The position numbers and the translations under genes were made by a program. This document shows positions 1 through 60,800 of a stretch of DNA of 64,000 nucleotides, in pieces. Source of the stretch: Lingula anatina (lineage: Eukaryota > Animalia > Brachiopoda); assembly GCA_051362555.1 (NCBI GenBank), contig CM120640.1, positions 20,708,001-20,772,000 of the forward strand, read 5' to 3'. Position 1 is the first letter of the stretch, and each line of letters begins with the position of its first letter. The notes below the pieces were generated by a model. That model was given only the letters and a program-made list of their open reading frames with translations. It did no database searches and was not told the DNA's origin.

Positions 1-2641
1 TTCGTATATATATATATATATATTTTTTTTTAACATGCTCTACCCACGCTCTGCCTACTCTTTCACTCTTTCTCTCTTCTCTCCCTTGCATCTCTTTCAA
101 AGCCATTCCTTGTTGCATATTAAAATGATAGATATGACATCCTGTTGGCCTGATTGGCATGTTCTACCCAAGCAACAGCAGAGCTGAACAGACAGATGAT
201 AGTTCTATCAGTTTCGTGTTCACCAGCTTATATTCCCTGAACAACAATAGTATTTATGTTGTATTCACTGTATCCACTCCATTTAGTAAATGTTCATCAG
301 TTACAATAAACGTATACGCACAATGCATTTATTAACCAATGTGTCGTCTTCTATCGGTATGACACGGCCACTTCATGGATCTAAAACACATGTCGACAGC
401 CCGATTCTTGTTGCACAACATGAGGGCATGTGACCGTGTGATCAGGGACCGATAACGTGGTTCAGCCAACCCAACTCAGTTAACCAAAAACCAATTTACA
501 AAAAAAGTCTCACTAGATTATAGAAATTTACGACGCCATTAATCCGTTAAGCTGAAACGAGTTCCTTGATTAAAAGCCGTTTTCGTGCAGTAAATTACAG
601 AATTACTAGCAGTCTACTAGAGCTACGTATAATGAGTTGGGATTCGCGGTGGTTATTAAATAATCAGGACAAAATCCAGGGACTCGTGAAATATCAATAC
701 AGGATTCTAGAAACAGTATACAAGTAGAAGGATGGACAAATATCTGGTTTTACAAGTCGCTAGGAAGATTTTGACCAAAAAATGACTTGTCGATCCCTTC
801 CACATTTCACAATATGATATGTAGTTTGGTTAACGTTATTTCGTATGAGAGCCTACTGCACAAGACCTGCCTTTTCAGTTCTATTCCGTTTCCGTTTTGC
901 ACACCTGCTTTTCAAAAAATCAGACTGCAACGCAAGGCGCCGTTGAATAAGAATGAAAGAAATATAATTATGGGTCCCTAAAAGGATGCATAATAATATG
1001 TATCAATACAAAATGAACATCATCATCATGATATTGGCTGATGAAGGCTTTAGAACTGCAAATCCGTTTTGGATTGTTTAAATGAATTTTTATCTAAAAA
1101 GTTATACTATACATTACTTTACCAAAGACATACTCTGTCTCTGTTTTTTATTCACCGTGCACGTGACCTGATTTGTCCCCCCCCCTCCCCTTAAAAAAAC
1201 CCAGACACCCGTAAATAAGGCGGATCATCCTTTGGTTATGGAGGAGGCAAGGGGCCATTTACAAGTCGTTTCCTGAATAATTTTGTGTTGAGATACGATT
1301 TTCATCACTCGACTGAGTCATTATCGTGTTGAAAGCTGAAGCCCGGTCGTTATTGATGTGAGAACAAAGGGATTAGCCTAAATGCAAACTATCATGATAC
1401 ATATGCAATCTTTTCTATTGCTTTTCTTACTGTGTAAATATTCAAACCGCTAAAACAATTGTTCGTTGGTCCTCGGCAGTGGTAACGCTTTCAGCAAATG
1501 TATAAATCTATGTGCAAATGGATACAAGTAACACAATACATCGAAGCACCGTCTCAATCTCAAATGATTTCAATCTCAAATGACTCAAGGAGGTAAAGGA
1601 GAGAGGGACTGCTTGAAACATCTGGCAACTACACGTGACCAAGGAAAGTCTAGCTATAATTCCTTGATATGAAGAAGGAGCTGTCCTGGGCAGCTGGGAA
1701 GTAATTTGTGGTTGGCAAGGCGCCTGCACATGGTACTAATTATGTTGATAACGTCCACTGAGTGCTAAGAAACATTCGAAACACACATTGAAAATAATAT
1801 GTTTTGTTAAGATCCCCCTTGTTTCCACGAGAAACATGAAAAACAAGACGTTAAGAAGAGTATCACTGTGGAGACAGAAATGCAGAACAGAATCCATTAA
1901 GGTTATGTAGCTTGAAATATATCAAAACATAACCTAATTTGAGTTTTTTTTCTTTCACGTTCTTATTTATGTATCACTCAATCATATCTGACATATACTA
2001 AGAAACTATGCTAATCAACATATCGATGACAGGTAAGGCTGTTATTGTGCTCTGGTATCATTTTTACTTGTTGAAGTACCTGGAAGTGTTTTTGGACTAT
2101 AATTCAATAATCCTAATTAAGTGTAGATAACAATCGGTTTGGGGGATAACTGTCTAACCACTGCCAATAAAATCGCCTGAATTGGTTTAGTTATTGACAA
2201 AATCGTGGAAAAAAGACCCGGTGCCACGGGTTTTTGATAACATCTTTTAAACCGGTGTTAGGCAGTCTTGTTTACAAAGGTCTATTGAAAACTAGTGCAA
2301 TTTAAAGTAATTATTGATAGACTCTCAGAAATCTGCACAGAATGATTTTATGAAAATCAATCGCACCGTACTATAGTATTCATGTACAACTCCTATTTGC
2401 CACTGAAAATTTTCTGTTACATGCCCAGTGGCCAGGTAGTAGAGAACATCAAGAAATCGAAAATAGGACTTTCACTCTAAAACCGCTAATATGACGTCAT
2501 CCGCTAATATGACGTCATCTGAAGACAAATAATGCCCATTAACATTATGTGATAAAATCATAACAACTCCTTTGATATATATCTTTTTAAATCTGACTTT
2601 AGCTAACAGGGTATATAATCTTAAGGGAAAGTAGCAACGGG

Positions 2642-38600: not shown

Positions 38601-41600
38601 CCTATCAGTTTGGTTTTATTAACGCCAGAAACTCGTACACACATACACACTCAAGTACAAAACCAGTCCGCCTGAAGAAGATCTTGCGATAAGGTCGAAA
38701 CGTCGTGATCATCGATTCAACGTAAGGTGATGTATTAGATTATATTTCCTCATTTAATCATTGAAGTATAATATATTTGGATGAATCAAAATATTCACTT
38801 TCATAGAAGTGAAAATGCTTGTGTGTATGTTTATGTATGTGTTTAAAATTACAACTTTTTGGTTATCGAAAACAAAATAAAATGCAGAAGAACTTAACTT
38901 GGTGATATAATTATTTCTTCATTTTCTTTTATGTCTATTTTTTAAGTTCCGACAAAACGCTATTTAATTCCTTTGCTTTTATATCAGTTAACTGTCTCTA
39001 ATCAGGTACATACAGTTGCTCAAACCAATTAATCTTTTTACCCATTATTAGGCCAACACAGTCTTTCCTTAGCCACAATATCACAGGCAACGACATGCTT
39101 GACTATCAGAAGAGCCAACTTAACTGTGGGTTCCGTAGTTGTTACGGACTGCTCTGGCGTTGGCATCTCCTCTGCCTTGAATGACCGTGCATCCTTCGTC
39201 AAGATTTTCAATTCAACAGTAAACGCCACTAGGTCTCAGGGTATTCGGATGACTGGGAAGGGTGATCTCAACCTGGACAATGTACTGGTGAAAGATACTG
39301 GCAGCCATGCGATTGAATACAGTGCAGCAGGTGACCTAATTGTGACCAACTCCGTAGTCAATAAGAGCAGCTCTTATGGTATCATCAGGTCCTCTCAGAA
39401 CGGCGGCGTTAAAATCATGAACAGCCAAATCACGGAAATCAGCAGGCCTGGGATACAGCTCAGTGCTTATTATATGGATTATGTAAATATCGAGGGAAAT
39501 TATATCGCACGCACCAGTAACTACTATGATTGGGCGTTAGCTTTGTACAGTATTTCATACCCGGTTACTGTGAAGAACAATACAATAGAAAGTAATACAG
39601 GTGGGGGAATGGTTGTAAGCCTAAGTTCCTATTCAGATATCTCCAGTACTATTATATCGGACAATATTTTTAGAGATAATAGAAAAGGGGGTCTGTGGTT
39701 GCAAAATGTTTGTCAAAGGGATGTCTTAGTAAATAACAATCGCTTTGAAAACCACGATCTTCTTTCCGAAACCGTGCTGAAAATTACCGCTTATCAGTAC
39801 ACTAGCCAAGCAAAGAATATTACAGTTCGAGGAAACGAACTGATTGACAATTCTGGACAATTCATACTCCAAATACAGAACCAACTTGCCAGTAAATGCA
39901 CTATCCTCGTTGAGGGTAACTTTCTCAAGGACAACCGTGTATCGGAATCCATCGTCGTCACGGAAACCGGAAAGCCCCGGATCAATTACAACATTTTTTC
40001 AAACCCAATATCAGCCTATGATCTGCGAGCATTTTATACGGACGATGAAATTTTAGATGCTAGGCACAACTGGTGGGGCAGCAGCGACCATAACCAAGTA
40101 AAATCCCGCATACAGGACCGGGAGGTCAGTGCCAATTATGGAAACGTAAGCTACGTGCCGTTCTTGCTGTCGCCAGAGTTTTCTTGCAATAACGTCAACA
40201 ACTGCTCAGGCAATGGGGTTTGCATTCGACCAGATACCTGCGAGTGTAATATTGGCCGGAAGGGGGCGGATTGTTCGCAAGCATCCTGTGCCCAGGTGTT
40301 TGAATGCCAAGGGCGCGGAACGTGTGTTGGACCAAATACCTGCCAGTGTGATAGTGGCTGGATGCCCCCGGACTGCGTGAGAGCCACCTGTGAGGGGAGA
40401 AATAATTGTTCTAAACATGGTTTATGTATAGAACCAAACAGGTAAATGATTAGTTCAAATAAAAAGTCCACCTATGTGTTAATAACGCACAACGTTTACT
40501 ATTTGAAATCATCGATAACCACTGCAGTAGAACTTACGTTGCATCGTGATCCATCATTTCATTATCTCTTAGAGAAAAAAAAACAAAACTTCTAGCCTAC
40601 CACAAAAAGATATTTCTTGTGGATTCTCACCTTTGTTTATACAGAGTATATGATATGAAACTTGTTTTTATGCATTTTAGATTAATTTTTCCACATGTGA
40701 AGGTATACATTTTATTCCGGTGTTATTTTTGAAGGTGCCGTTGTTTCACGCGTTATCAGGGAGAGAATTGCTCGGAATGTTCCGGGAATCACTGGGGCCC
40801 TGAATGTCGTCCGTGTCAACCGTGTGTGCATGGGTCATGTGATCAACAGACAGGTTTGTCATTATATTTTATTAATGGTTATTTTTCCTTGCGTATTTAT
40901 GTAAAGATGTTGTAGTCCATGGCTGCTTCATTAACCATAACTTCATTTTTTAAAGCAATTGCAGCCCTACATATTTAGACATTCGACTTTTCGGTTGCAT
41001 TAAATCGTATATAATTAAGTTACAACGTACAATGAACAACATCAAAAGTACAGTGTAAGTTCACACATCACACGATATGACAAACATATGGTACATGTGC
41101 ATGTGGGAGTAAGGTGCAATTTTTTTAGGATCGTGTGTATGCAGCGGCCCTAATTGGACTGGAGATCAGTGTAACCGCTGTAGTCCAAAGTTCTATGGTC
41201 CAGCCTGCTTGCCTTTGATGCGTGTTTTGTCGGTGGCTCCTGATGGAGGACCAGATATAGGGGGCACTGTAGTCCGCGTGACAGGACACAACTTCCCTAA
41301 CTCCACCGAATATTCGTGCAGGTAAGGCAAGGACTAATATCTAGGAAGTGTTATATATTCATAATTGATCAATGCGAAAAGTTTTGGTCATTTGCCATAC
41401 AGATGGTGGCCAATTCAGTACATAAGAAAAGGGGGATTAAATGTCGCAAATTACTAAAAACCGATTTATTTTGGCTCATTTTAACATTAATGAAAGATAT
41501 ACACCTTTTGAGTCTAGAGAGATATTTCTCTGTTTTCCTTGACTGTCCCATCATATTCAAGTATTTCCAAGATAATTAAACTACATTATGTATCGCGATT

Positions 41601-44600
41601 TCGGTTTCTTATCTAATTCAATCTGTCGATGGAATACTTGACATATACAAGCACGCATTTATGGCACAACAGATTCATATTATGATATTCGTATTTACGT
41701 ACTAGGTTTGGTAGCGTAGAAATTCCAGGCACATGGATATCCACAGAGGAGGTAACCTGCAAGGCACCTAAGCAAAACCCCAACACTGTACGAATTGCTA
41801 TCCGGTCACAAAACGATGGAAGCTTCAGCACTGAACTGGTAAGTTCCTGAAGGATCGTAAGTTTGGGATCCTTTTTGAGTCAAAGATTGTATAAAGTAAG
41901 TCTATCTAGAAGATTTTCACATATAGTAGATTGCGTCTGTAGAAATACTACTGAATGTACACAAGTGAAGAAAGCGCTTCGGTTCTCAATAAATGGCAAC
42001 GCCGTGCAGCATTACTCGAACCTCAATATTTAAATTTTATAATGTAGTAAATCGAATTCAGCCTACTTTAGTAGCTCTACTATTTGAATCGCACAGGTCT
42101 TTTTTACCTACTACGGCATATGCCCGGCTTCAGCGTGCGGTCGCCTGTATCAGCCCCCTAGAGGTATATGCTCCTTTGGGGAGTGCCTGTGCTCAAAGCC
42201 GTGGTCCGGTGATAATTGCACTGTCCTGAGACTTGCCCCCAAGATCGCAAATATTCCAAACCTGCTGGTTACTGAAGGAGAGAGTGTAGAAATCCCGTTA
42301 TCATTAACCGAGGTAGATTTTTTTTTTACAACGTGGCCATGGAATGTTCAAGATTAAGATAATAAGAAGCATGTTACAAGCGTTTCCATTATCTTATTAT
42401 TGATTTTAAATTAAAAAAAAACGTATGTTATAACGCAATTGTGAGAGAATTGAGCTAAATGGTTCAGTCATAAAAGGTATAAATGGGTAAATTTAGCATG
42501 AGAAATTCGCACAAACCAAACATTTTTACATATATATTCTTGAAATGTCATTTAAAGTGTATCTGCAGTGGCATTTGAATATGATAAAAAAAAAAAACAG
42601 CCAGTTCAATTACCCCTTATACATGTACATGTTATGATAGGGTTCGACACCAGTTGAATGGAGACTTTTAGGATCCCCCAGCGGCATGGCTTTGGACTCT
42701 GGCTCCCAAATCATCCGCTGGGATTCAGCCGTGGCATCACCTGCGCCGTACACCGTCGGAGTATCAGCCCAAAATGACATAGGCTCTGACAGGAGACAGT
42801 TTAACCTGACTGTAAGAAGATCTTACGAGGCAGAGCTAGATCCGGTTAATTACGGCCCATTCATCAGTGCTACACCAACTCTACTGACTGGAAGAGTGAA
42901 TTTCATTGAAAGCTCACCATTTCGCAATAGCCCGGTGCCTGTGAAAGTAGTGTAAGTGTTTTAAACTCCGGCGCACAGGTTGAGAAACAGACTGAACTCC
43001 TGATAGTTTAGTTCTTTGATGTCGCCAATAATGAATTAATTGCCTTTTTGGTTTTTGTGAATTGAACCATGCACAGATAATTATACACGATAGTTGCTGA
43101 ACTCTCATCCACCTTGTGCGCTGGACATATTGTTACACCCTTTTTTTTTCAACCCGTAAGATATCTGTTCATTTCCATGCCAATATATTGCAGTCCAGTT
43201 TAGGCAATACGTAGAAATTATGTAAACTTATTTCTATGATGGAATTTTACTTTCATTTCATTAAGTGATTTATTTTTAGGGTTGTATCACAGACCTCGGG
43301 TTCTAGACGAGTACTGAGTGCGACCACCTTCGCTCACAGCAATACTTTCTTTGTCCGATTTTATCCATCTTCATCCGAGGCAGGCATCTACGTTGCTGTG
43401 AGTATTTGTAACTGATTATATTTTTATTAATTGTTGGTTTAATTCAGTATAAAATAATTAAGCTGTGACAATTTTCCCAAGTTTAGATTGTTTAAAACTA
43501 TAGGATAAGGAAGGATATCTTGAACAGACAATGTAACAACGCCCCTCTTTATTTCGCCTGCATTTTTGGGGACGTATTTCACTATTTTCTTTTTTTTTAC
43601 TGTTTAATGTGTGCATAATATATGAGATTCCGTTGACGATAAATATATCCAAAACTATGCTTAGCATACCGTTTGTTTAACCTAATGAAGGGTGCATCCC
43701 ATCCAAAAGATCCACAAGACTACAATCAGACTAGATGGTCATTCCTTGGGATGACTGTATCGCCAAGATACCTGCGTGTCGGTGGGTATCTGGGATTTTA
43801 TTCCTACAACGAGAGTATGAAGGTGACGAATCACGGAGGTGATCGGCTGCACAACGTTACAGTTCAGGTGAGGAACAAATTACTTTACCAGCTAATAAAG
43901 AGCCTTTTCGTCGCTGTTTTTGTGTTTGGTTCAAGTGTTCTAAACTGTAAATATAGCTGCAGTGTGTATAAATATTCAATGAAAATGAGATAAAAACTGG
44001 CATGAACCCCTTCTTTCAACTTGCCACTGCTTGGGAAATGAATTTTGACCAAAGTTCGTTCTCCAAGCAATAGCAAGCCCGGAGTTACAGCTAAGAGCTT
44101 AAAATAAAACTACTAGAAAAGGGGGCTTACAACACGTTCCGTTTTGGGAAGACCTGCAGGACTAACCCGTGAGAAGTCGGGTCTATATTGTACACCCTTT
44201 CTGTCGTCGCATACACGACTTGAACTTAAAACAGGCAGGTAAATTAATTTTGGTTTAATTGATATTTAATTTAATTACTTAATTATTCATGATTTTTACG
44301 TTAAAAAGTGGAAAGACACAAAGTTTGGTTCGTGTCAGCTATTTGCATGGTGTCACAGCGTCAGAAATGAGATATCTGAACAAATTTGGTTATTTCAGAT
44401 TCCTGAATTTGTCACCGGAATCGTGACTTTGAAGCCAACCGGTGAAGGAGTCTGCACGTCCTTCCCATGCTCCCTCAAACGAGTGTTTCAACCGGGAGAA
44501 GAAATCAGTCTTGATTTAGACTTTTCTGGTAAGATTATGCTTACAGATTTTTAAAATCAATTTTGGCAAAATGAAAAAATAAAGAGAAGATAAGTGAACA

Positions 44601-45115
44601 AATTCTTATTGAACTATCTGAATGAATATGAATATGAAAACACAGAGAAACCGATAGACGCGTAATTAGGTGAATTATTGGATACATAAATAAATAAATA
44701 AATTTAAAAACAGCTGCAATTCTTCCTCTAAATCTCTTTTATTGAAAAATCAACCAGAACTACAATGAAGTCGACATTCCCTTACAGTGACCCAGTCGGC
44801 GAGTGGGTACTTTGAGGTGGCATTCGTGAGTGGGGAACAGGTGTATGCTTCTGGTCAGGTTAACTACAACTTTCAACCAAAAATGCCAACATTGACTTTG
44901 ACTCCAAGTTCCATCAGGACATCGATATCCAGGGGAAAAACTCGACTCTTTGAGGTAAGTTGGTCGACATCCCCCCCTATTGCCATACCTGACACTGAGC
45001 AGCTCGCGGACCGACAATGTGTTCGGTTTTATGAGGACGGCTGTATAGCAGAAGACGGTCGTGTCGATACGGGGCCACCCATCAGTGAGTGAAATAAACA
45101 CGATTTTAGCCTTTG

Positions 45116-45157
<42 letters not shown>

Positions 45158-48100
45158 TATTATTATTATTATTATTATTATTATATTCTTATATGGCGCA
45201 TCCCGTTTAAAACCTCAGTGCGCCTTACAATTAAAGAACTAAATAACACAATTGAGAAAGATTTAAAAATGACAAAATTGCGAGTTAAAATGGCTAATTT
45301 AAAGTTAACTATAAAGATTACAGATAGTTTGTCAAAATTCTAAAAGTTGGAGTCTAAGACTTTATGATGATGATCTAGAATTATGAAAAGGACAAAAGAT
45401 CTAAAAGAATAAAAACTAGGCTTGATCAATCACAATAAGCTGTTTAGGCAGAGTGAATGGCGCACAATTTTTCAGAATTCACAAATTACTGCAATCCTCC
45501 CTTCCTTATAAAAAATTTGGTAACCGGATCTTTATGTGTTGTAGAATATATGGCATATTTTATTTCTTTAGTAAAGTTTGGAGTAGAACATTTTGGACAT
45601 TTATTTAGGTGAACGTCACTAACAGTGGTCTTGCCACCGCACACAACATCTACGTAGATCTGGGATCAGTGGACATTCTATCAGTGGCTTCCTTCAGCAA
45701 GAAGGGTGATCCGTCTACCGAGGATATTAAGTTCCATCTGGATCAGGGGGAATCAGCAACTCTAGTTCTTTCTGCTCTGATTCAACAAGACGCATCGCTG
45801 GGGCAAACAGTCGGGAATATCCTTGTACGATCTGACGAAGTCGGCTCGAGCATTAACTTCAGGTGAGTAAAAACTTACCCAATCGGTCCATTTTGGAGAT
45901 GATGCAGGTAGGGCTGCTGCCATGTTGTTATACGTTGACGTAGCTTGCAATGAAAAAGTTCTGAAGTCCTTGGCTGACGTCTGTCTGGCAGCATACATGC
46001 TATTCTGTATACACTGTACCAGATAAGGTCTGGTTGCTCTGTTTTTTTTTAAGTAAGATTTGGCCTATATCTATGTGAAATTGGATTTGGAACCCCTGGA
46101 CACAACCTAAAACCGCCTTGATGTGTTTTCAGAATCACGACCACCTCAACTCGCCTTGTGGACATCTACGTTCTTGTAGAAGACGAATACACGTATTTTG
46201 GCACAAATAGATCCTATCTAGCCAACGCAACTGTCCACCTTAGAAACAAACTAGAAAATATACGTTTAACAGCTAAATCTAATGCATCAGGTGAGTATCA
46301 TAAAATGGGTCCGTGTTGTTTCATTTTAATAAATTTATTTAAACCAACATTCTTTGAAAGCAGTGAATGCAAATATAATTTAATAGACCAAAGCTGCTGC
46401 AGTCCTCATCATAAATATATTTTCATAGTAATTTAAAGGTTCGTCAGTGTCAGGGTCACAAAATAATAATAATAATTTCTACAATTTTCAGGGATAGCTG
46501 TTTTCAAAGATGTAGCAGAGTCTTTCTATGATGTATATGCCGAGGCAGAGAAACACACCCCATTGTCCAAAGTTATTGCGGCAAATGAAGACCAAAATTT
46601 AGTTCGAATGTTTCTGGAGAGAACTGGTGTCACATACAAGTAAGACTAAGTGGATATTAGAGAGTTTTGGCAAGGCCTTCCGTATGACGTGTAACGTATA
46701 CTTCAATACGTAATACGTTTTACGTACACGAGAAAGCTAGCAGTGGTTTTGGCAGGTCTCACTCCGTATGTGGTTTTTTCCGCCAGGAGCCGCTGGGGTT
46801 TTAAATGGGTTGTAGAAGTTTACCTCCTTCAGCAACATCTCGTCTATGTCATCAGTAAAATTTATGGATTTTTTCTTGGCTGACATACTGACTTTCCTGA
46901 CTTTATTAGCTAGGCTATTATATTATGATTATCTGCAATTCAAAGAAATAAAATGATAAGGGTATAGGCCTATATATATGGATTACACGAACATGGGGCT
47001 GCTTGTGGATTCTTTTTAGATAGATGAATAATTAAGATGTTGAATGGAATGTGTTATCTACGTCAATTGATGTCGCAGATCCTGTTGTTTATGAAAAAAA
47101 ATCAACTTAAATTGAATTTGATACTACTACGGACGACTGATTGACTGGCTGTTTTCCCAGCTGTTTTCACAGAGTATTTCTACCGACAGCGTCTAAAAGT
47201 GATTCAGTGGAATCTTAACACCCTATATATTCCTCTGCAGTATGTTAAACTTGAAAGAAATAAGCGTAAATCTATTAAATTTGATACGTTTCTTACCTAC
47301 GTGTAATCACCGATTTATACGTAGTGCCGTATGACTTATGACTTGTCGTTGAGAAAAACTACGCACAAAGTGATGACGTCGCACGTTATACGTCGTACGG
47401 AAGGCCTTGCCAAAACTCTCTATTAATATTGCATACGTATCGATATCAAATGATTTTCGGGAATCATAACCATAAAAAATAACACTCAATTTTTCTTTAA
47501 ATCTCAATTAGAAGAGAGCACATAATTTTGTATGTCATTGAATTCCTTATTTTTTACTATTTATACCTATTGTCTACAAAAAAATGATTGTTTCACTAAT
47601 AATACTTGTATACAAACTGACCTCCTGAAAACATTATTTTCCACAGTTGGAGAGTAGAACCAGTGACGTTTGAGGACAGATACGTCATCACTTTAGAGGC
47701 AGATTTTGAAACTCAGGTTCCAATGCCAGTTGTCACCATAGACCCAAAGGAACTGGATCTGGATGTATTAGAACGTTGTGCATACGGCAACAGCATAACG
47801 TTTACTGTAACCAACCACGGTCTCGTACGAGCAGACGATTTCCAGTTCACTTTGCCAGATGCAAACGCACACCCTTTCTTGAGATTCGCAATGGTAATAT
47901 TCTTGTTTATAAGTATCTAATAAGTCTTGCAGTGTTTTGTGAGCAATACATCTAATGAAAGAATAAGAGAGAGTCATAATAATATATCACATTAGATTGC
48001 GCTTTGCAAAACACAAAAACACACTTTTTTGGGATTGTTGGCAAGACCAGCGTTTAAACGAAAATCTATTACCAGCTTATGTCATACCAAGCTTCATGTT

Positions 48101-48825
48101 TGCATGGTGAGGTATGTGGCACAGAAGATCCATTTTTTATGCAAGCCAAGTTTAGCATAAATGTGCATTCTCGTTTATCGATTAGTGTAGGTCCCTTTAT
48201 AGTTTTATAGTTTCACGTCCAATGACAAAAACAGAACGTCTGTTAGTGTCTAATGTGTGAAAATTGTTTTATTTTCTACAAGTCTCAGACAAATCGACAA
48301 TAACTACATGACTGTTCTTCAAATGAAAACATTTTTCAGGCACAGGATGGTCCTATCGGCGACATTGCCGCCAATACTTCCGTTCAGTTTTCTGTACTGG
48401 TATATGGGTGTGGGGTGCAGGCTGATGAAGCCACTGGTCTTGCCCCTGTCGTTGCTCGGCAAAGAAGGGCATTTGGAGGCACTGTGTAAGTTAACTGCAT
48501 ACGCATGCATACGCTTCCCAGCGGGCAAATTATGTTGCTTTAACGTTGAAACAACGTTGAACCATAACGTTGAGAAGACATTGAATAAACGTTGGATTTG
48601 AAAGTTGTGTCAACCTCAGATAACAACGTTGTATCAACGTCAGAAAACAATGTTATATCAACCCCACCCAGCGGGAAATTAGCCTGGATGTGTTTAGCAG
48701 TAGGACATGTTTGATGGCTAAATATATGTAGAGTATAAATGAATGGCCTTTAAGTTAAAATTTCCAAGGTTTAGATAAATATATATATAAGAAGATAACT
48801 ACAACCATATATAACTGTTATTACA

Positions 48826-48886
<61 letters not shown>

Positions 48887-51800
48887 TTGAATCAGCTGTT
48901 TATCTATACATACATTTTCATTCTCTCACTGCAGGTGTAGCAGCGGTTTTTCTTTTAGTGGTTCATATTCGTACATTTGTGACACCAAAAGAACAAGGAG
49001 TTTTTCAGTGCCTGCTCGACCCAGGACTGCAAGACCAGCTTGTATCTCGATAATAATTAATCCTCCTCGCGGAGGTGGAGGGCCAGATGGAGGGCCAGGT
49101 GGGCCAGGTGGAGGGCCCAGTGGTGGCGGCTGCTGTGCGGGTAAATACATTTAGTTTTGTGCCCTCACATTCTATTTCTCATTTATTTGATAAAAACACA
49201 AATAGCTAGCTACATTTGTGTGAACAACCTTTGGCTGGCTCAAATTTTGGTTTACACAATTTTTGGTAAAGAGGAAAAGAGCGTACCTCCCCCTCCCTCA
49301 AAAGAAAGGGAGTTGGGGTTGGGTAGCCCTCCACAGCTGATCTGTCTCCACCCATTTTTTCTCGAATTAGCTCAAGGCTCGACCGGTCGTCATTTCACTA
49401 CACAATGTCAGCCTTAGCATGTGATTGAACTGATGCTGATTTTTTCAGCTTCCACAATATTTCGGCTAACACGTTTTTTGGCTTACACGTTTTTTGGCTT
49501 ACACGTTTTTGGCTTAATCCTCTTTAGGTTCACACGTTTTTGGCTCACCCTACTTTTTGGCCTCTTTGCAACCCCACAAATTGAAATGTGTGCACTATTT
49601 CTTTGGAAATTATATTTTAAATGTGGATATTTCAGCCGCACACATTATGTTAAATGTCATTTTTCAACACTATTCAATGTTTATCATTAATCTGCTTATT
49701 TTTTTAAGTAATGGGACTTTCAATAAACCCGGCCGTCATCGGCCAAATTTCGAACATCATACTGGAGTTTGTTTCATTATTTTATCTGCACGTCATATTA
49801 TTTAAATTAGCTTAGATCAAGGAGACATAAATGCACTATATCACGTTAAGTCAACATACATGCATTTTGTTATTGATATCAGTGCTACACATTCGATACC
49901 ATTCTATTGTATCCATATTCCAGGTTCCTCCAGTCTTACCGTCACTGTCACCCAGGACGTGTCTTGTGAAAAATGCGTGCTCAACGTTGTCGACTGTATA
50001 CTTGGAAACGTTCCACCTTGTACGTAAAGAGATGTTTTGTGGTCCAAAATATTCTCCTTTAGATACAACATAATTAAACTTAGTTTTACCGGATATTAAA
50101 AAAATTGCAGCTTTCTTTATTTTAGACCCAGGGCGAGAAGTTCACTATTTTACCAATTGAAGGCTTTTTTTCTATCATGATTAGTAATTACAAGAGCTGT
50201 TGAGTATATACTGCAGAAATGTTTAAGCAACATACATGTACTTTATAATTGCAATAGATTATTTTTGACAAATTTTATTGTATTTTTTAACCACCTAAGG
50301 TTTTTTTTCTTTTTTTCCGATATAACTCAATTGGTTTGTGCGTCCTTTTTGCATAGATACATGCGTGTAAGATGAACGTTAAATAAGACACGTTATCTTT
50401 ATTTCGTAGTCCCGTTCAGTTGCGGCTATACCATCGGAACAAAGGCTCGTCCAGGAGCTCTAGGAAACGGCGGCGCAGTGGGCTGGGCAAAGGATGTAGC
50501 GGACGTTGTTTTTGCCTGTGTTCCCGCTTTGTCTGTCCTGTCGTCAATTTGGGGAGGCTTAAGGTAAGATAGAACTTACATATACTAGTAAGTGCTAAAG
50601 AAAAAAGAGATAAGATGGAAAGGAAATGGCCATAGAAAACATAATGCTTAACTTGGCCAAGTTAAGCAGAAAAGGGCGTTTTAAATCGCGTCGGCAGATA
50701 CGATTGTCTGTATATAATGGTGAGACAATTACCAGCCTAGCAGTACGTGCGCAATTGCATCCAAAAAGTCAGCGCAGAAATGTATTGACGTAGGGGCTAA
50801 AGTGAAGCTGATAAGATTGACATCATCTATATTTATAGGAGATTGTGATTTTTACACATTGCTTTATGAGATTCAGATAAGAATCTGTTTTAAATTCGGG
50901 TCGATTTTGAACTTGATATTATTTATCATGAATCAGGTGTATAGAAACGATTGGAGACGCATGTTTGCCGTCAGTGTCATATGAAAGAAGACGAAGGGCA
51001 ATAAGTTTACTTACAAAAGAAGAGGTCGCTCCCATCTTAGCCTACAGGGTTCAGTCGCTCCAGAATCTGGTTCAGTTGATGCTCATGTTCGTTGATGAAC
51101 CAGAACAGTGGTAAGTATATCTTTAAAGGAGGAAATTATTTCACTTATATTTTATATAATATATCAGGATTTTTCTAGATTTTAAATGCATAGCGCTCAC
51201 ATGCAATTGGTAAATAGCTTTCTGTTATCTGCCATATGTTCTTTTCAATTTCCATCGTTTTCGAAACCTTTTTTCTCTATATCTAAATACGCATTTGTGT
51301 ATCTAGACTGATATGGTCACCAATATATCATTTAAGGCAATTTGTGGACGCCAACGTGTGGTGGAAAAATCAACTCCGACCTCTGCTGGCAGACGACAGT
51401 GACGGCGGCCATCTGATAACTAGAGCTGAACTAGATTCCGTTCGAGGAACTAATCCAACAAACATGTCTGAAGTCATGATGGAAAACTTTGTCACGAGGC
51501 TAAATAATTCCTTGACTAACTGGGAAAATGGAATACTTGAAGGGCAAGGAGTCATCAGTTATAACAAGGCGTTAGAACGTATGAACAGAATCACCAACGA
51601 TACACGGACCGCAAAAGATGTTAGTTCAAATGGGTAGTTTGATTACTACTTTTTCCTTAACACGTTTTTAAAGAATATCTTGAGAGATAAAAAATGTATT
51701 AAAGCTGTGTTACATATCAATGATATTAAAAGGATGTACAATGTTTGTCGCAAATACTGTAGTAAATTTAGATTTCATAACGAGAGGAAACAAGCCTGCA

Positions 51801-54800
51801 GAGATTTGCACTAAGGACTCCATCTAGTGTTTTTTTTATTTTTATTATATTTTTTTAAATTTTTTTTTTTACAAAATGTGCGCATTGAATCCTAATGTTA
51901 TAAGACACATATGTTTCATTGGCGAAAAATAGATAAATAGACAGTTTTATTTTTACTCTAGGCGGGGGCGCAAACCATTTTTGATTGGCACAATGAAGCG
52001 AATCAGCAGTTTTTAGACGCAAAGACGGTAACCATTTCTTTTTTTTTACATTTCCCCAATGTTTTCACAGTTGGAAAATGTTGTTTCTGTCAAAATGTTT
52101 ATTTGAATATGATGATCTTTCTTTATGGGCGGTGGTTACAGGTTTTTAAGTATCAAACAAAACGGGTATAATCAAGTGTATTACATGTTTGTAAGCTGCA
52201 ACATATTTATGAACATGTGTATTTTTCTAGGGCAGGGGTGTCTGTGCCAAAGTTCGGATCCAGATCGTGCAGGAATTGGTTCTCACAAGAGATGCGTTTG
52301 AAGCGACACTGGAAATTGAAAATGGCGAGACAAATACTTTGGAGAAGATTAGAGTTGAAATAATAATCACTCGGAGTGAAACTGGCGAAAGAGCAACCGA
52401 ATTGTTTTCGATAGGTAATGCATTTTTTTTGTAAGAATAATGATCTCCAGTAATCTTTTATGGCAAAAATGCTCATGTTATATGTAATTAAAGAAAAGCC
52501 CGTCAATTTAGATGCCGATTAATTCTGTTTATGTCATGATACTTAAAAACGTCTTTTTCAGACAGATATGGTCACAGTTGAACTAATATTTAAAAATTAT
52601 GCCAACTTTTTTTTCGTATGCAGGATTAACAAACAGAAAAACGGGGTCGTTTTACCGAACTTCCCTGTGGTTGTTCTTTTTAAAAAAAGACCAGTTTGGA
52701 TCACATATTATATTTTATACTCAGGTCAGCCCAAGCTATCCGGATTAACGGACGTGTCTGGAAATGGTACCCTTACTCCAAAACAAGAGGGAAGCTCTAT
52801 CTGGCTTATAGTACCTTACAGTGAGGCGGCACCTCAAGAGGACACTCAATATGACATGGGTACATTAAATTAATCAGTGATTTGTGTTTAATAGTAGTTT
52901 ACAGTTTTCAAGTATTGATAGTGGCATCCGGTGCTTTCGAAAGTAAATGCATTATGGTGGAAATCAATGACTAATATTTGTTTGAAAAAAATCCGAGTTT
53001 AGAATAGAATTAATAGAGTATTTACAGTATTTTAAACATTTTTCACTTGTAAAAATGCTTTGATTGGATACTCGCATCTATTTTACATTTCATTGGTATA
53101 ATTGGTGGTAGGATGTTCAATATTTAGCCCTTACTTATCTTGCAGGAGGGAAACTATTTTATACACTCAACGGAGAAGAAATCACAGTTCCTCTTTTCCC
53201 TGACACCGTGACCGTTAAACCAGACCCACGCCTTCACATTAACTACTTCTTGGAAAAGTATGTCCTAGGGGACGATCCATTCACAACAGGTACCTGGTGT
53301 ATACAAAATAATTTTTCTATTGTAGAGGTGGCAGATATTTATTATTTCAGTGACGTGTCAGTTGAGCAGCAGTATGAAGAGGATTGGCAGCTGAAAGCCA
53401 TTGCGGAAATTGGCGTAATTGCATTGGCTAAGATGAGTACAAAAAAACTGAAAGACTTTCAAAATGCAGCTTTAAAAAATGAGAACTCCTCTCATCTGTC
53501 GCTTTTTTCCGCAAGTTCATTTTACGAATATATATTGCATAGTAGGTTAATAAGACACTTTTGTTGACTTTTTCCAGATGTTGTTGAACCATCGGTCCCA
53601 TTCTCGCTGGGAGTACTGGTTTCAAATACAGGGTATGGTTCCGCAAACCAAATGCAGATCACGTCAGCTCAGCCTGAAATTATTGATAACGAGAAGGGAC
53701 TACTTATCAGTTTCAAAATCACTGGCGCTCAGTTGGGGGCAGAACCGATTTCGACGTCCTTGACTGTGAATTTTGGAGACATACTACCAAATACTACAAA
53801 AATGGCGAGATGGATGATGACGTCATCGCTACCAGGAAGATTTTCTAATTATTCGGCGACGTTCGAGAATATCAATCCATTAGGTAATATTTTAAGATTT
53901 TATACTGTTTTTGATATTATTGATAAATATAAGTGTGTATTCTGAATAGATATTGTGGGTTGAAATAGGTATATCCCATGTTATTTATTCATAAGCAGAA
54001 ATGTCTAACATTTACAGAAAGGTCAGTACAATCGTGACGATGGTATTGACTTCTGTTTTTGTTGCTACCCGAGGTAGAAAGTACAAAACCTTTTTTTCTT
54101 TCATATTATTTATTCACTATTTCCAGTCCCATTTTCTCCATCTCTCCCTTTACATCTTTCAATCTCCTGCGGCCTTCTCGCTGTTTTACCCGCTTCGTGA
54201 AATTTAACCGCCAACCTCACAGAATTTCGACCCACAAAAATGTTTGTCCACTCAAATTGAATGTGAAATATTAATTTGTTTTTTTAGGAGACCCTCAGTT
54301 ATCAGTTTTAGATTCCGTTGAATTTCACGAGCTTCTACATGTCGTTCGTGTGGAACCAGACGACGGCATTCCGGACTTCTTGGTCGTGCCAGACATGAGT
54401 TTGGATTTACTTCCCAATTTTATATACACCAGTCACGACGGAAACAACCCATACCCTGTGTCGTCTGCAAACATAACTCATGTTCAGTTTAATGGAGGCA
54501 AAGAAATAAAGGTACCACAATGGCAGTAAAAGCTTTTAAACTCCTAAAGAAAAATTACTATGTGTTCATTGGCATATTTCTTAATGAAGATCAGAAATTA
54601 TTTATCTGAATTTTTTAAATTCTTCTTGGCAAGTGAAAACATATAGACATGTATACAGTAGGCCTGTTAACGCTCACTTTTTGATATGAAATAAACCAGG
54701 TAATGCACGTAATCTTTATTAAACAATCTGTTGTTAATATAATCTATCTTTTTACAGTTAACAGTGAAGTCGGACAGCAGCGGTTGGATTTATGCCAGAA

Positions 54801-57800
54801 CTGAATTCAGTGAAGATTTATCACTAGATGTCGACTCTGTTACTCGTTCCGATGGAAAAACAATATTACCTGACTACAATATGTGGATTGGCAAAATAAA
54901 CGACAATTCGTTACTACAGATTGTAGATTTTTATGAAAATACAACCGGCGTGCACATGTACATGTACACCGTCAAGCTGGCAAGAAAAAATATCTTTGCT
55001 CCAAAGTTTGACCCGACATACATATCACTGAATGTTACTGAAGGGACACCAACTGACACTCTTATTTACACTGCTATGGCCACAGATAACGACACTCCCC
55101 CTGAGAACATGGTTTCATACCACTTACAGAGTACCGGTAGTGTGCCTTTCAGCGTAAACGATCAAAGCGGGGAAATCAGGGTGTCAGGAGATCTGGATAG
55201 AGAAATGGAGGACATCATTTCATTCCGTATTCTAGCAACGGACGGAGGGGAGCCACAAAAAACTGGAACTCTGTCCGTGGATGCCCATGTTATCGATGTC
55301 AATGACGAGTACCCTGTATTCAACCCCACTCAATATTCAACAAACTTAGAGGTTGATGCGCCAGTATCATATTCAATTGTTCAAGTATCGGCTACAGACC
55401 GAGATAGCGGTTCCAATGGCCAACTTACATACGGCATAAACAATCCAGATGGAACATTCGAAATTGATCCCGACACTGGTGAATTACGGGTGGCGTCTTC
55501 GTTAAACACCTCTTTGTCGCCTTATGTGTTGGAGATATTTGCTGAAGATCGTGGAATTCCCCCGAGGCGCAGCCCAGTGCTCGCACAAGTGACCATTAAA
55601 GTAACACCTGTAAATCGCAATGCCCCTGTATTTGATGCTGACGTCAACAGTTTCTCGATAGCGGAAGCTGCTATTATAGGCACGGTGGTTGGCTCTGTGT
55701 CAGCATCAGACCACGACACCTCACAGACGGTCACATACATGCTGGGTCCAAACCAAAACATTCCTTTCGAAGTGAACACAACCAGTGGAGCCCTGAGAAC
55801 AACTGGTGTTTTGGACTACGAAAAGGCCAAGTTGTACGAGTTTACCGTTCTTGCAAAGGACAACGGCAACCCACCGACTGGAAGTCTAACTGGCACCACG
55901 ACGGTGTCGGTAAATGTTACTGATGTGAACGACAACGCAGCCGCATTCGCTGACAATGCATACGACGTGACTATCCTGGAGGACTCTGAGATGGGAACGA
56001 ATGTCATTCGCACGGTCGCTTTTGATGCAGATTCTGGTGAAAATGGTAGGATCTCGATTGTAACGTTAATAGGATCTGACCTTCCATTCGAAGTCAATTT
56101 TGATGGATCCAACGTAACTGTGCGGACTGCGGGTTTGTTGGACAGGGAAACCAAGGACTCGTATGTTTTTAATCTGGTTGCTGTGGATGCCGGGGTTCCT
56201 CAAAAGACGGGTTTGGCACAGGTCACGGTGACAGTAGAAGATGTGAATGACAACCCACCTGTCATTACGCCGCCAGCCGACCCGGTGACCTTGGCACCAG
56301 ACACGCCCGTTAACACTGAAGTAACCACAGTCCAGGCAACCGATGCTGACATCACAGGTTTATATTACGTTTTTCTAGATGATCGACAACGAATTATGTT
56401 CATGTCTTATAATCTTAGAGTGAAGTCTCGCTTAATGAATATCTTAAGGTAAAACCTGCACGTGATATGCCACACGGTACTTTTACTGGTACCGTCAATG
56501 TGTATATGAGGAATAGATGTGTTATCATAGAATGAACTAAACTTGTATGATTATTATAGTCCATTGCCAATATCAATTTTGTACTATGCTTTTAGGAATG
56601 CTTCGATATTCTTTGTCGAATGATGGTTCCGGAAAGTTCGCCATCAACGCTGAGACTGGGGCTATTCGTCTAATAAAGCCATTGGCCGCGGCCCAGACAT
56701 CGTTTACTGTCGACGTTTTGGTAACAGACGGCGTGCATAATGTCACGGCCAGTGTCAACCTGCAAGTTGCAACGTCCAACACCTTTGCTCCCTTTTTTAA
56801 CAAAACCAAATATGAAACGATGGTAATCAATTATATTCTTTTATCAGAAAATTGTACTAAGTTGTGTCAATCTTAACTTAATACCTCAGTACTATTTACG
56901 CTAACTTCCGCCCTCCTTAATGTAAAAATAAAGAAATAGTTCGTTATAAAACAGATACAACAAAAGTGTTACCTTCTCTAGACATGAGACCGACTTAGAA
57001 TGTAAGTGGAGAGTCAAGATTTACCAATATTGATGTTACAATTAATCATAACACTTAATATATTACAGGTACTCGAAAACTCTGCCCCAGGGGTAGTTGT
57101 AGAGACGGTAGTTGCAACTGATCAAGACAGCAGCGTAGTGACGTATTCTATAGCTGATGGTAATGTTGGGAGTGCATTCACAATTGACGCCGTTTCTGGT
57201 AAGTTTTCATTCCACTTGACACAGTTAAGTTTATACAACATTATATGGAAAATATGTAGTACTGGATGTTCCATATGCATTTATTTTAACAACAGTATGT
57301 AATTCTGCCTTATACACTTTATACGTCAATCACCCTACGTATTTATATCGAAACAAGGGGTTGGTGCAATTAAGAATTTTTTTTCGGAATTAGACCTAGC
57401 ATTTATACTAAAGAACATACTTTTAAGTATTAAAATTAAATTAAAATTAAGTATTTGGTATTTTAATCAATAGCCTTAGAAGGGCAAATGGGTCCGAAGT
57501 TAATTGATTGCTGACACTCTGTTGAAAGGAAGAAAAATGGCGGTCATTTTATGATACGGACACTACGATAAGCTCCTTCACCGATCCCTTTTTGTGGATA
57601 GCAGATACAAAATATTTATCTAAGAATTGAAGAAATTTCTAGAACCAGAAGTATTGGTTATAATGTAATTCAATTTTATTTTATTTTCAAGGCCAAATCA
57701 CTGTCCAAGGAAGTTTAGACAGAGAAAGCAGACCTATGTATAATTTGACAGTCGTGGCAAGTGACAGTGGCATCAACGGGCAAAATATCCTCACCTCAGC

Positions 57801-60800
57801 TGTACCCGTCTTCATCACAGTTGGAGATGTCAATGAGTTTACTCCAGAATTTCAGGAGACCGAACTGGTGTCTCGCATATATGAAAATCTGCCCGGGAAT
57901 ACTTTCCTAAGAGAGGTGAGCTTTTTTGTTCTGTTCAGTAACATCAGTTCGAGCTAAATACCTGTTTTGTAATTTTAATGCGTAAGGTGATGTGAACTGA
58001 TACAGAACGTTTAGTTTGGAGAGAGAGGAACGGAGCTATGATAAATTTTATCCCCAAATATCCCACGCCCTGCTCGGTCAAGCAGCCTGTTTTGTTTAAT
58101 ACCAATAACACTCAATAAAACGGTATTTTCCTCCATCTTTCAGTTTAAAGTTCAGGACAATGACACTGATCAGACTATCCACTTCACGTTGATACAATCA
58201 GCAGAAAATGCTTTCTTCATCTCTTCCGACGGCCAGATATATATAACCAAATCACTGGACAGGGAGATGACTGGCCTTTACAGAATGGCAGTAGTTGCAA
58301 AGGACGATGGTAAGATCCACACAAAACATACACGTGCACTCCGTATATGGTAGTGTGAAAGTACTTAATATTAATGGAACACTAACCATTGTTTTTAAGT
58401 GAGTGCAGAACCATCTTGAAATGCTTTTGATTGACATAAAGGATATTCGTTATGTCCCTTTGTCATTGTTACCTGGTGATTTGGTTCTGAAATATTCATT
58501 TTGGTTCTTTCACACTTGTTCATTGCAAATTTGATATTTTATGTAGGTGTTCCCCCACGAAGTTCCACCATGGACCTGGAAGTACAGGTCCTCGATGTCA
58601 ACGACAACGCCCCGGTCTTCACTGCTCCCTCCTATAATGAAACTGTAAACCTGGCTGACCTCCCTGACGGTTCAGACGCAATCCTCACCGTGAAAGCCGT
58701 TGATGCAGATATTGATGCCAATGGTGTTGTACGATACGGCTTAGAGTCCTCCCCAAATGATTATTTTGAGATCGACAGCATAATGGGAGTAATCCGCATA
58801 CTGCCTGCAGGCCGGAACGTTGTTGGAGAGAGGACCGAAACCCTTACGGTTGTCGCTACAGACCGGGGTACCCCGCCACAAACTTCAGCTGCAGTAGCAA
58901 GAATCACGTTGATTGGGGCTGAGACTCCACGTACAAACTATTCAATTGAGGTAAGAAAACCTAACTTAAGATCTGTCAGTAGGAAAAGCACATATGCACG
59001 TATCACCCAACAAGGCCCTCTGTTGAAGTAGAGTAATCTGAGATATTGGTGGTGGATTGATTTATTTCATTTCTTTGCAACTTATGATAATTTGGCCTCT
59101 TCGTCGTATAAAAGTGTTTGACCCAGTAAACGGATTGATTATTAGACATTACGTTATAGTTTCGCAGTTAACACGTCAGGAACTTGGTCCTGGGGACGAT
59201 TTCACATATTACAGGACTGTCTTAAAAATGAGTAGTGACTTGAGGCATATGCTTATAAGCAGTTATCTTTCTTAGGATGGGAAAATGAATCTCTTAAGAC
59301 TAAATCCTTGTTACAAAGTAGGCGCAATACTTAATTTAACACTACTTACTTATTGTGGGTCAAGGAAGACTTAAATATTGGCCTTAAAGTTCGGATCAAT
59401 TTTTATCTTATAGGTATCTGAAGACACATTGCCCGGATCCACCATTCTACACTTAAATGTAACCCAGGTTGGTCTCAGTGTTGTCTATACAATAGTGGAC
59501 GGAAATGCGGAAGGGAAATTTTCTGTCGAGGTGCATGGTAAGTACAACCACCTGCTGGAATTCAATTATCTTTTCTACTGATTGTTCCCCAGCTACTGAT
59601 AAGATATTTATGTCTCCTCCATCCCAGTGCATCACAAACTTGCATATTCCCGTTCATAGCAAAAGAGAATGTAACAAAGACTATCGGGTGTTCGTGATTT
59701 GGCCAAACAAGGCCGCTTTTATTAATTGTTGTCGCCATAAAATATCGTTTGACTACGCCAAACTTTCCTTTATTCAGTTGGTTGCAATCAAGTCGCGCTT
59801 TCGCAAATGTTGGAATTAGAAAGATGCCAACCTGCAGGTATCGGGATAATATTGATGAATTGATTTATATAAATGAAACTTTTAATGTAGATGGTTTTCC
59901 TGTCATCCATTTTTTTGTAAGAATATTTAGCCACTGTTGATTGTTTTATGGGTCATTCCTCCTACAGGTCACCTCGTGTTGGAATCACGGTTGGATAGAG
60001 AAACGACACCGTCATACGTTTTAACACTGAATGGAACAGATGGACAGTTTACCGTTCATATCACTGTAACAAGATCGACGTCATCCACGTCAACAACGAC
60101 GTCAACAACGACCCCGACAACGACGACGACAACGGAGACTTTGACAACGACGACGGAGACTTCGACAACGACGACAACGGAGACTTCGACAACGACATCA
60201 TCAGAAACGGAGTCAACGACAACGGTACTGACACCGTCTACCACCACTCCAACTATCCAGCAGCTGAATGAAGGTGCTTTCGTTTTTCTTTATTTTTATG
60301 TCAAACTGCGTTGGAAGTTTCACTATGTAAACATCTGTGTTTAACTCAGTTGTCTTTACGCTTGTATTTTAATTACGTCCCATGTTTGCATGTTTTCAAT
60401 GTGTTGTTCATGTCTGAAAAGACACAGAACAAATGTTTTGCTTAATAGCAACAAAATGTCCAGTATGTTAATGAATTACATAAATAGATTTGTATGGAGT
60501 TTTGAGTTCATAATATGTAAACTTAATTTGTCAATAATTCCTTCAGAATTGACTGCGAAGAGACGGGAAGTGTTTGACGTCATGGAACAACTCAAAGACG
60601 CAGCTCTGCCTACCCAGGACTTCATGCGTATGTTTAACCAGTGGAGGATAATGGTAGGTTTTGACAGTAGAGATCTGTCATCAACCGTTATATCGTGTGA
60701 AATACTTTCAACATGCTGTCGTGCTTTAGGACCTCTTTCTCTACCTTCATGTACATACTATTAAACGGTAGTCGTTTTCTTTTTCGAGGCCAATTTTTTT

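Follow-up and report, generated by a model that had tools for sequence, protein, structure and literature searches.

A bacterial-type surface module with a variable internal insert in an intron-rich cadherin-repeat gene of the brachiopod Lingula anatina

The 64,000-nucleotide (nt) stretch of Lingula anatina DNA analyzed here (assembly GCA_051362555.1, contig CM120640.1, positions 20,708,001 to 20,772,000 of the forward strand), which is referred to in its full length as the window, carries on its plus strand a large gene for a multidomain extracellular protein. Within this protein, a module of about 1,350 amino acids (aa) precedes the cadherin repeats and, judged by sequence, resembles parts of giant bacterial surface proteins. 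In RefSeq the gene is labelled "protocadherin Fat 4-like" (XP_023932455, XP_013414156), but this model is a truncated, misnamed piece of a larger gene, and the Fat label is due to the cadherin tail alone.

Gene structure and domain order

The gene model comprises 24 exons (41706-56357, plus strand) with 1,925 codons without a stop and AG/GT at all junctions. A previous sequence-only reading had noted a motif string, a module of about 1,200 aa and about 21 introns. All 10 motif pieces searched were found on the plus strand, between 46176 and 53705 and in different frames, and the module proved to be real but longer than proposed (model aa 117-1470). The number of module introns is exactly 21; they are of the GT-AG type, measure 201-1007 nt each and lie between 42641 and 54758. 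RNA reads support 13 of these junctions, and the remaining 8 are consistent with the RefSeq L. anatina proteins P0214/P0001, at 98-100% identity. Four RNA runs labelled as this species were aligned to 41100-51800, and junctions beyond this interval rest on RefSeq. Among the joints listed, the oligo-dT run X7 provided at least 15, namely, 12 within the module and 3 just upstream, as well as a loose end that fits the 13th module junction (next exon); its reads are mostly 95-99% alike to the window and hence derive from another population or a close species. The other three runs contributed 1 joint read altogether.

The RefSeq isoforms start inside the module, at aa 686 (the longest isoform) and aa 935 (window 48340-51110), which possibly reflects a split annotation or internal start sites, and the RNA joints continue upstream through the start point at aa 686. 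Upstream of the module, exon ends were placed by means of splice sites and homology. The first exon was not located, and a rough exon sum suggests a whole protein of about 4,800 aa. Its domain order is F5/8, beta-helix, SRCR, EGF, IPT, module and cadherin, and a tblastn search with mollusc, leech and lamprey orthologues revealed the upstream domains in identical order. No transmembrane segment was detected in the RefSeq isoforms (hydropathy maximum of 1.42), and in several orthologues the protein terminates with a hydrophobic stretch that resembles an anchor. For the module, an AlphaFold model was made of the homologue P0047 (78 rows; predicted local distance difference test [pLDDT] score of 82.6) and mapped to the window by alignment. 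The features, all on the plus strand, are as follows.

23843-41321, plus strand: upstream exons with F5/8 type C, several right-handed beta-helix blocks, one SRCR, EGF repeats and the start of IPT (Pfam on exons; tblastn; RNA joint 41319>41704)
41706-42312, plus strand: two exons with the end of IPT, one EGF and the lead-in to the module (RNA joints; Pfam EGF)
42641-46157, plus strand: N-terminal part (N-part) of the module, model aa 117-510, with a putative immunoglobulin (Ig) domain and probable further Ig/CARDB-type sandwiches (He_PIG E 2.6e-4; RNA joints)
42641-42951, 43280-43397, 43691-43867, 44399-44528, 44788-44954, 45609-45862 and the start of the exon at 46133, plus strand: exons of the N-part
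46158-46639, plus strand: transthyretin-like/carboxypeptidase-regulatory-like domain that contains VEDEYTYF (mapped from the P0047 fold; CarboxypepD_reg in homologues)
47647-47725, plus strand: long strand WRVEPV...FETQVP, which in the prediction completes the first of the beta-sandwiches in the C-terminal core (29-residue strand in the P0047 model)
47726-49019, plus strand: MSP/ASH/PapD-like Ig domain, one loop of which carries basic site 1 (VIA Z 9.5-9.7, P0047 model 175-290)
48457-48468, plus strand: furin-type site 1, RQRR, model aa 726 (motif)
49020-50985, plus strand: Gly-rich linker and variable Cys-rich, moderately hydrophobic helical insert, with four helices at low confidence (no fold match above Z 7.1)
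50986-50997, plus strand: furin-type site 2, RRRR, model aa 904 (motif)
50998-52027, plus strand: helical domain linking the insert to the core, exons 50937-51110, 51337-51619 and 51962-52027 (pLDDT about 85-95 in both folds)
52231-54892, plus strand: conserved all-beta core, GVCAKV...NMWIG (conservation across 494 rows)
52231-52414, 52725-52859, 53146-53289, 53578-53883, 54288-54511 and the start of the exon at 54758, plus strand: exons of the core
53268-53285, plus strand: near-invariant D-D-P-x-T loop in the core
54989-61313, plus strand: nine cadherin repeats, a Thr-rich stretch and a short tail (Pfam on P0001; tblastn of P0001 on the window)

In each of the four RNA runs, two intronic intervals, 48500-48900 and 49270-49840, are covered by reads that have loose ends; these intervals probably contain dispersed repeats. 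Non-coding similarity also recurs at 21499-23023 and 53995-54271, which suggests a short repeat family; as an example, 18409-18588 and 22844-23023 are alike in translation.

Relatives in bacteria and eukaryotes

The likeness to bacterial CARDB/putative-Ig giants that had been proposed from the motifs turned out to be strong homology, far beyond chance. A single module exon matches named bacterial proteins with E values of 1e-25 to 1e-26, and the 375-aa core matches 2,777 clusters at 50% identity, of which 1,907 have E values of 1e-30 or below. Across 494 rows, 53 core positions are at least 90% conserved in both groups, and the Lingula core shares 58% identity with the best other animal and 50% with the best prokaryote. 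Outside the Ig and carboxypeptidase-regulatory-like domains that flank it, the module gave no sequence match in Pfam, NCBIfam or PDB (PDB searches with P0047 gave a best E value of 0.5, and those with profile A2 gave none). In the ESM Atlas, the core led to unnamed clusters and the insert to no usable match. No description of the module was found in the openly accessible main texts searched; supplements of horizontal gene transfer screens or of skeletal proteomes may list these genes. As far as these searches go, a module of 1,350 aa that occurs in thousands of clusters, and whose core shares about 50% identity across bacteria and animals, has neither a family name nor a solved structure.

Named prokaryotic carriers include Microcystis, Nostoc, Verrucomicrobia, Planctomycetes, Armatimonadota, Bacteroidota and Proteobacteria, in which the module resides in giant CARDB, putative-Ig, RTX, type IX secretion system (T9SS) or dockerin proteins; among GTDB genomes, 48 of 160 pattern-matched stretches were confirmed. 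Phages gave no module match, and none of 37 pattern matches in viral contigs was confirmed. At the Bacteroidota loci L003-L047, the module gene lies immediately behind a second large gene (about 850-1,700 aa), which belongs to one of two families (21 and 10 loci). In Nostoc PCC 7120, the module gene is located on plasmid alpha (WP_044523664.1), and the Nostoc plasmid copy (L049:1-973) lies about 5 kb downstream of a secretion gene of an NHLP bacteriocin system, between transposases. In Albimonas and a relative (G001, G004), the module forms part of open frames of 9,823 and 10,166 aa.

Named animal carriers are molluscs, Helobdella, Owenia, three decapods (shrimps), Saccoglossus, two lampreys and the sponge Dysidea. 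The presence in animals is thus patchy, as proposed previously, but it is not restricted to invertebrates, since lampreys as well as P0394, a Symbiodinium-labelled protein of 4,080 aa, carry the module. P0394 combines beta-helix, EGF and module and is the sole named non-animal eukaryote among the matches listed in three named-protein searches (best 120 of 498 and best 120 of 128). With P0306, which has an EGF-IPT-module layout, it contradicts the earlier view that the module was inserted between "animal" EGF/IPT and cadherin domains. Besides P0394, four proteins look eukaryotic owing to EGF/IPT domains or to a hydrophobic segment with tyrosine-motif tails.

Several animal copies have unusual architectures. 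In Dysidea avara P0108, the module heads an adhesion G protein-coupled receptor, followed by ten Calx-beta domains, Ig, GAIN/GPS and seven transmembrane segments, a layout that would link the module to signalling. Saccoglossus P0233 contains three cores in a single protein of 7,485 aa. The N-parts are repeated in P0109/P0110. Halocaridina P0093 has two whole modules, and this genus also has three consecutively numbered paralogues on a contig of identical length. A mussel transcript that carries the identifier of the Saccoglossus homologue is listed as 39-fold changed, without being studied, in the accessible part of PMC11817969.

In a core tree of 70 rows hand-picked from 387, the animals form one branch (100/98), and the animals together with four eukaryote-like rows form another (100/98). 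A tree from a larger alignment (540 columns of N-part and core, 44 hand-picked rows, root put on Bacteroidota by choice) unites all eukaryotic rows, including Symbiodinium, in one branch (98/92), with the animals at 91/96. This branch lies inside a 97/93 group with Planctomycetota, Armatimonadota and unnamed rows, and in the trees no bacterial sequences are nested inside the eukaryotes. Other bacteria are grouped largely by phylum (Bacteroidota, Cyanobacteria, Alphaproteobacteria), which fits a long residence in bacteria. One origin of the eukaryotic copies is well supported by these sequence comparisons, and a transfer from bacteria to eukaryotes is the probable direction. It is likely that a single old transfer predates animals or that the module spread between eukaryotes, because P0394, outside the animal clade, already has beta-helix, EGF and module. 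Lamprey and shrimp copies cluster with the sponge (100/99); a transfer between animals was considered for this grouping, but the approximately unbiased (AU) test did not support it (bilaterian monophyly, p 0.093).

That the module has been intronised was confirmed, with signs of lineage-specific intron gain. Eight of 54 animal-clade fragments begin no more than 4 residues from the aa 1123 junction of Lingula and then read without a break through the positions of four later Lingula introns; open reading frames of the sponge clade are unbroken over up to 15 Lingula junctions. If these frames are calls on genomic DNA, as contig sizes suggest for some, one intron is shared with bivalves and many are lineage specific.

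Predicted fold, variable insert and interpretation

The model of P0047 predicts a nested fold, new here: its beta-sandwich is split, and both an MSP/ASH-like domain and a helical insert are held within it. Its transthyretin-like domain was matched with a VIA Z of 12.5 (root mean square deviation of 1.5, 83 aligned). The sandwich consists of strand 144-172 and core residues 578-708, and matches spanning 141..708 were obtained to GAE/appendage-type sandwiches (Z 9-10.4). In between lie the MSP/ASH-like domain (175-290, Z 9.7), a low-confidence linker with Cys-rich helices and a confident helical domain; further beta domains follow, of which those past residue 708 were hardly sampled by the fold search.

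The insert is exchanged or missing among bacteria, as far as the aligned sequences tell. All 65 animal inserts, of 269-334 aa, have the helical domain, as do 163 of 210 prokaryotic inserts (39-548 aa). The 47 others include a 23-member unrelated class, 11 inserts under 80 aa and singletons, and no Pfam, NCBIfam or PDB match was detected within these odd inserts. Two of the bacterial inserts have an enzyme-like look, that of P0278 (residues 598-989) with an HExxH string and that of P0270 (residues 966-1356), which has no database match, with a Cys/His pattern reminiscent of papain-like domains. Among animals, the Cys helices are the least conserved part (33% identity versus 61-74% for the core).

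In Lingula, sites 1 and 2 are the only furin-type sites of the 1,925-aa model. The furin consensus is R-x-K/R-R. After reduction of the row set from 214 to 187, this motif was present at site 2 in 36/51 animal, 2/3 eukaryote-like and 2/133 prokaryotic rows, and KR or R-x-R-R was present at site 1 in 40/46 animal versus 9/128 prokaryotic rows. Furin-type sites are limited to the eukaryotic branch, with a background of 0.05-0.06 sites per 1,000 aa (a count in which the animal row P0119 was binned as non-animal).

We propose that a bacterial surface scaffold with an exchangeable tip was captured once by an early eukaryote and is processed by convertases in animals for adhesion or recognition, a reading whose chances we consider evenly balanced. 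In bacteria, the module would be secreted within RTX, T9SS, dockerin or CARDB giants, with exchange of the insert. According to the model, the transthyretin-like domain would run on into a strand pairing with the remote C-terminal core, and the MSP/ASH-like domain, Gly linker, Cys-rich helices and helical domain would thereby loop out as a nested insert. Animal precursors would then be cut at the two basic sites, which flank some 180 aa. The shared sandwich would hold the N- and C-terminal parts together, and the middle piece may stay tethered by two ASH-like strands and disulfides, exposing the variable helical tip. The partner domains are all of extracellular adhesion or binding types, namely, cadherin, SRCR, F5/8, kringle, Calx-beta, SEA and the sponge adhesion receptor. 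A processed display or adhesion role is quite possible, if somewhat short of probable.

A number of observations weigh against this proposal. The fold is that of a homologue and not of Lingula, its insert is the least confident part (pLDDT below 50 in stretches), and no whole-model structure match was obtained, a Foldseek search against PDB and viral models giving only generic Ig-chain matches (TM-score of 0.14 or below). The site counts are non-independent, coming from one clade, so that relatedness makes them one gain rather than many; furthermore, site 2 is without the full motif in 15/51 animal rows, including lamprey and leech, and without a dibasic pair in 5. As to the old horizontal acquisition that had been suggested, the single eukaryotic branch holds, but nesting within bacteria depends on a root that was chosen and not inferred, P0394 and P0086 are long branches, and the nearest prokaryote differs between trees, including a smaller one. 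Most "prokaryotic" rows were assigned by tree position and domain content, and the dinoflagellate copy would also fit an older vertical descent with many losses.

In a first alternative, the module would be a domesticated bacterial effector carrier, whose scaffold shields a hydrophobic four-helix bundle as latent membrane-active or antimicrobial cargo that is freed or unmasked by furin-type cleavage. Two basic sites do flank the piece, and inserts are more hydrophobic than core controls: a peak 19-residue hydropathy of at least 1.6 is reached by 32/65 animal and 73/163 prokaryotic inserts, versus 1/113 and 2/275 controls, with a value of 1.89 in Lingula. Some bacterial inserts are unrelated domains, one with HExxH (P0278). 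However, a hydropathy of 2.0 is reached in 7/65 animal inserts only, and the odd inserts match no Pfam, NCBIfam or PDB entry. The Foldseek search gave no support for a viral fusogen or pore-forming toxin fold, and the helical insert folded alone (bacterial L001, pLDDT 72) had no pore-forming fold among its matches (best Z of 7.1), a weak test. At 48 genomic loci and the Nostoc plasmid locus, there was no recurrent small downstream immunity-like gene. We regard this alternative as unlikely.

Ancient vertical inheritance is also improbable in our view. The module would have been present in an early eukaryote, by old transfer or originally, joined to beta-helix and EGF and lost often, without any transfer near the animal base. 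It agrees with the shared layout of P0394, which branches outside animals, with an ESM Atlas cluster that lists Prasinodermophyta on 2 records (a lead only) and with bilaterian monophyly, which was not rejected (AU p 0.093). On the other hand, very many losses would be required, the named non-animal eukaryotes number one among the matches listed (best 120 of 498, of 128), and P0394 could reflect a transfer between eukaryotes or one mislabelled assembly.

Very unlikely is a self-processing scaffold in which the D-D-P-x-T loop acts in Asp-Pro autocleavage or as a calcium site, as in VWD/wreath; this would be the function that is conserved, and the insert would be secondary. The loop is near-invariant in the rows counted (first D in 158/160 and 327/333, P in 152 and 312, T in 160 and 331), and Asp-Pro cleavage is described in VWD, wreath, RGM and ITIH in the accessible text of PMC11670116. 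The module nonetheless has no VWD Pfam match, Ala stands in place of Pro in 27 rows and Asn in place of the preceding Asp in 30, and the fold search hardly sampled the core past residue 708. A eukaryote-to-bacteria transfer, although the tree is unrooted, is most improbable given the far larger and phylum-structured bacterial diversity, and contamination of the assembly is ruled out by 21 spliceosomal introns, polyA/oligo-dT reads over joints and orthologues in many animals.

Comparison with known systems

The giant CARDB, putative-Ig, tandem-95 and Calx-beta proteins of Planctomycetota, Verrucomicrobiota, Cyanobacteria and Bacteroidota, such as the Nostoc PCC 7120 plasmid protein and Microcystis tandem-95 proteins, are true homologues over the whole module, with N-part, insert and core in the same order and identities of 24-30% for the N-part and 40-50% for the core. 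They are named by their flanking repeats only, lack furin-type sites and introns, and have an interchangeable insert. The Fat family is characterized by a long cadherin array, laminin G and a transmembrane segment. With its nine cadherin repeats, the Lingula gene resembles Fat/protocadherins, but none of these three features was found in it, and it is not a Fat cadherin.

The bacterial copies share with polymorphic toxin systems a conserved secreted scaffold with exchangeable domains, as far as these systems are described in the accessible part of PMC3482391; in the module, however, the variable domain is internal and followed by the core, and it does not look like a standard polymorphic toxin. 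No toxin family or recurrent immunity-like gene was recognised in the inserts or loci, the loci being biased toward Bacteroidota, where divergent immunity genes could have escaped notice. Like the sponge wreath domain and VWD, as presented in the accessible text of PMC11670116, the core of the module is all-beta and extracellular, has a conserved Asp-Pro and adjoins Calx-beta in sponges, but wreath is reported there as demosponge specific, and the module has no VWD Pfam match.

Teneurins and bacterial teneurin-like proteins provide a precedent for the uptake of a bacterial surface protein by eukaryotes, as set out in the accessible parts of PMC6425310 and bioRxiv 10.1101/2025.11.11.687626. As in these proteins, Ig/CARDB repeats, a transthyretin-like domain and a conserved superfold are combined with variable cargo and a probable early eukaryotic uptake behind EGF repeats. 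The match concerns EGF repeats (Pfam) that precede the transthyretin-like fold (Z 12.5), and teneurin chains were matched with Z 9-10, although this fold is generic. In contrast to teneurins, no NHL propeller, YD-repeat shell or RHS core was detected in Pfam scans of homologues or in the confident model, which has Ig sandwiches and helices after the transthyretin-like domain. The cargo is internal and not C-terminal, and animal processing would use host convertases. The distribution differs as well: the named matches include a sponge and a protein labelled as dinoflagellate, and among them jawed vertebrates, insects and nematodes were not seen. Tentatively, and with rather low confidence, the module may represent a second teneurin-like domestication, in which a bacterial cassette-carrier superfold with exchangeable internal cargo was captured once before animals arose, and furin-type proteases unmask or release a disulfide-bound amphipathic helical cargo. 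This fast-evolving cargo could then be a membrane-active defence molecule or a recognition ligand in sponges, lophotrochozoans, shrimps, hemichordates and lampreys. The module is a further candidate for the small set of bacterial surface machines that were incorporated into the early animal extracellular toolkit.

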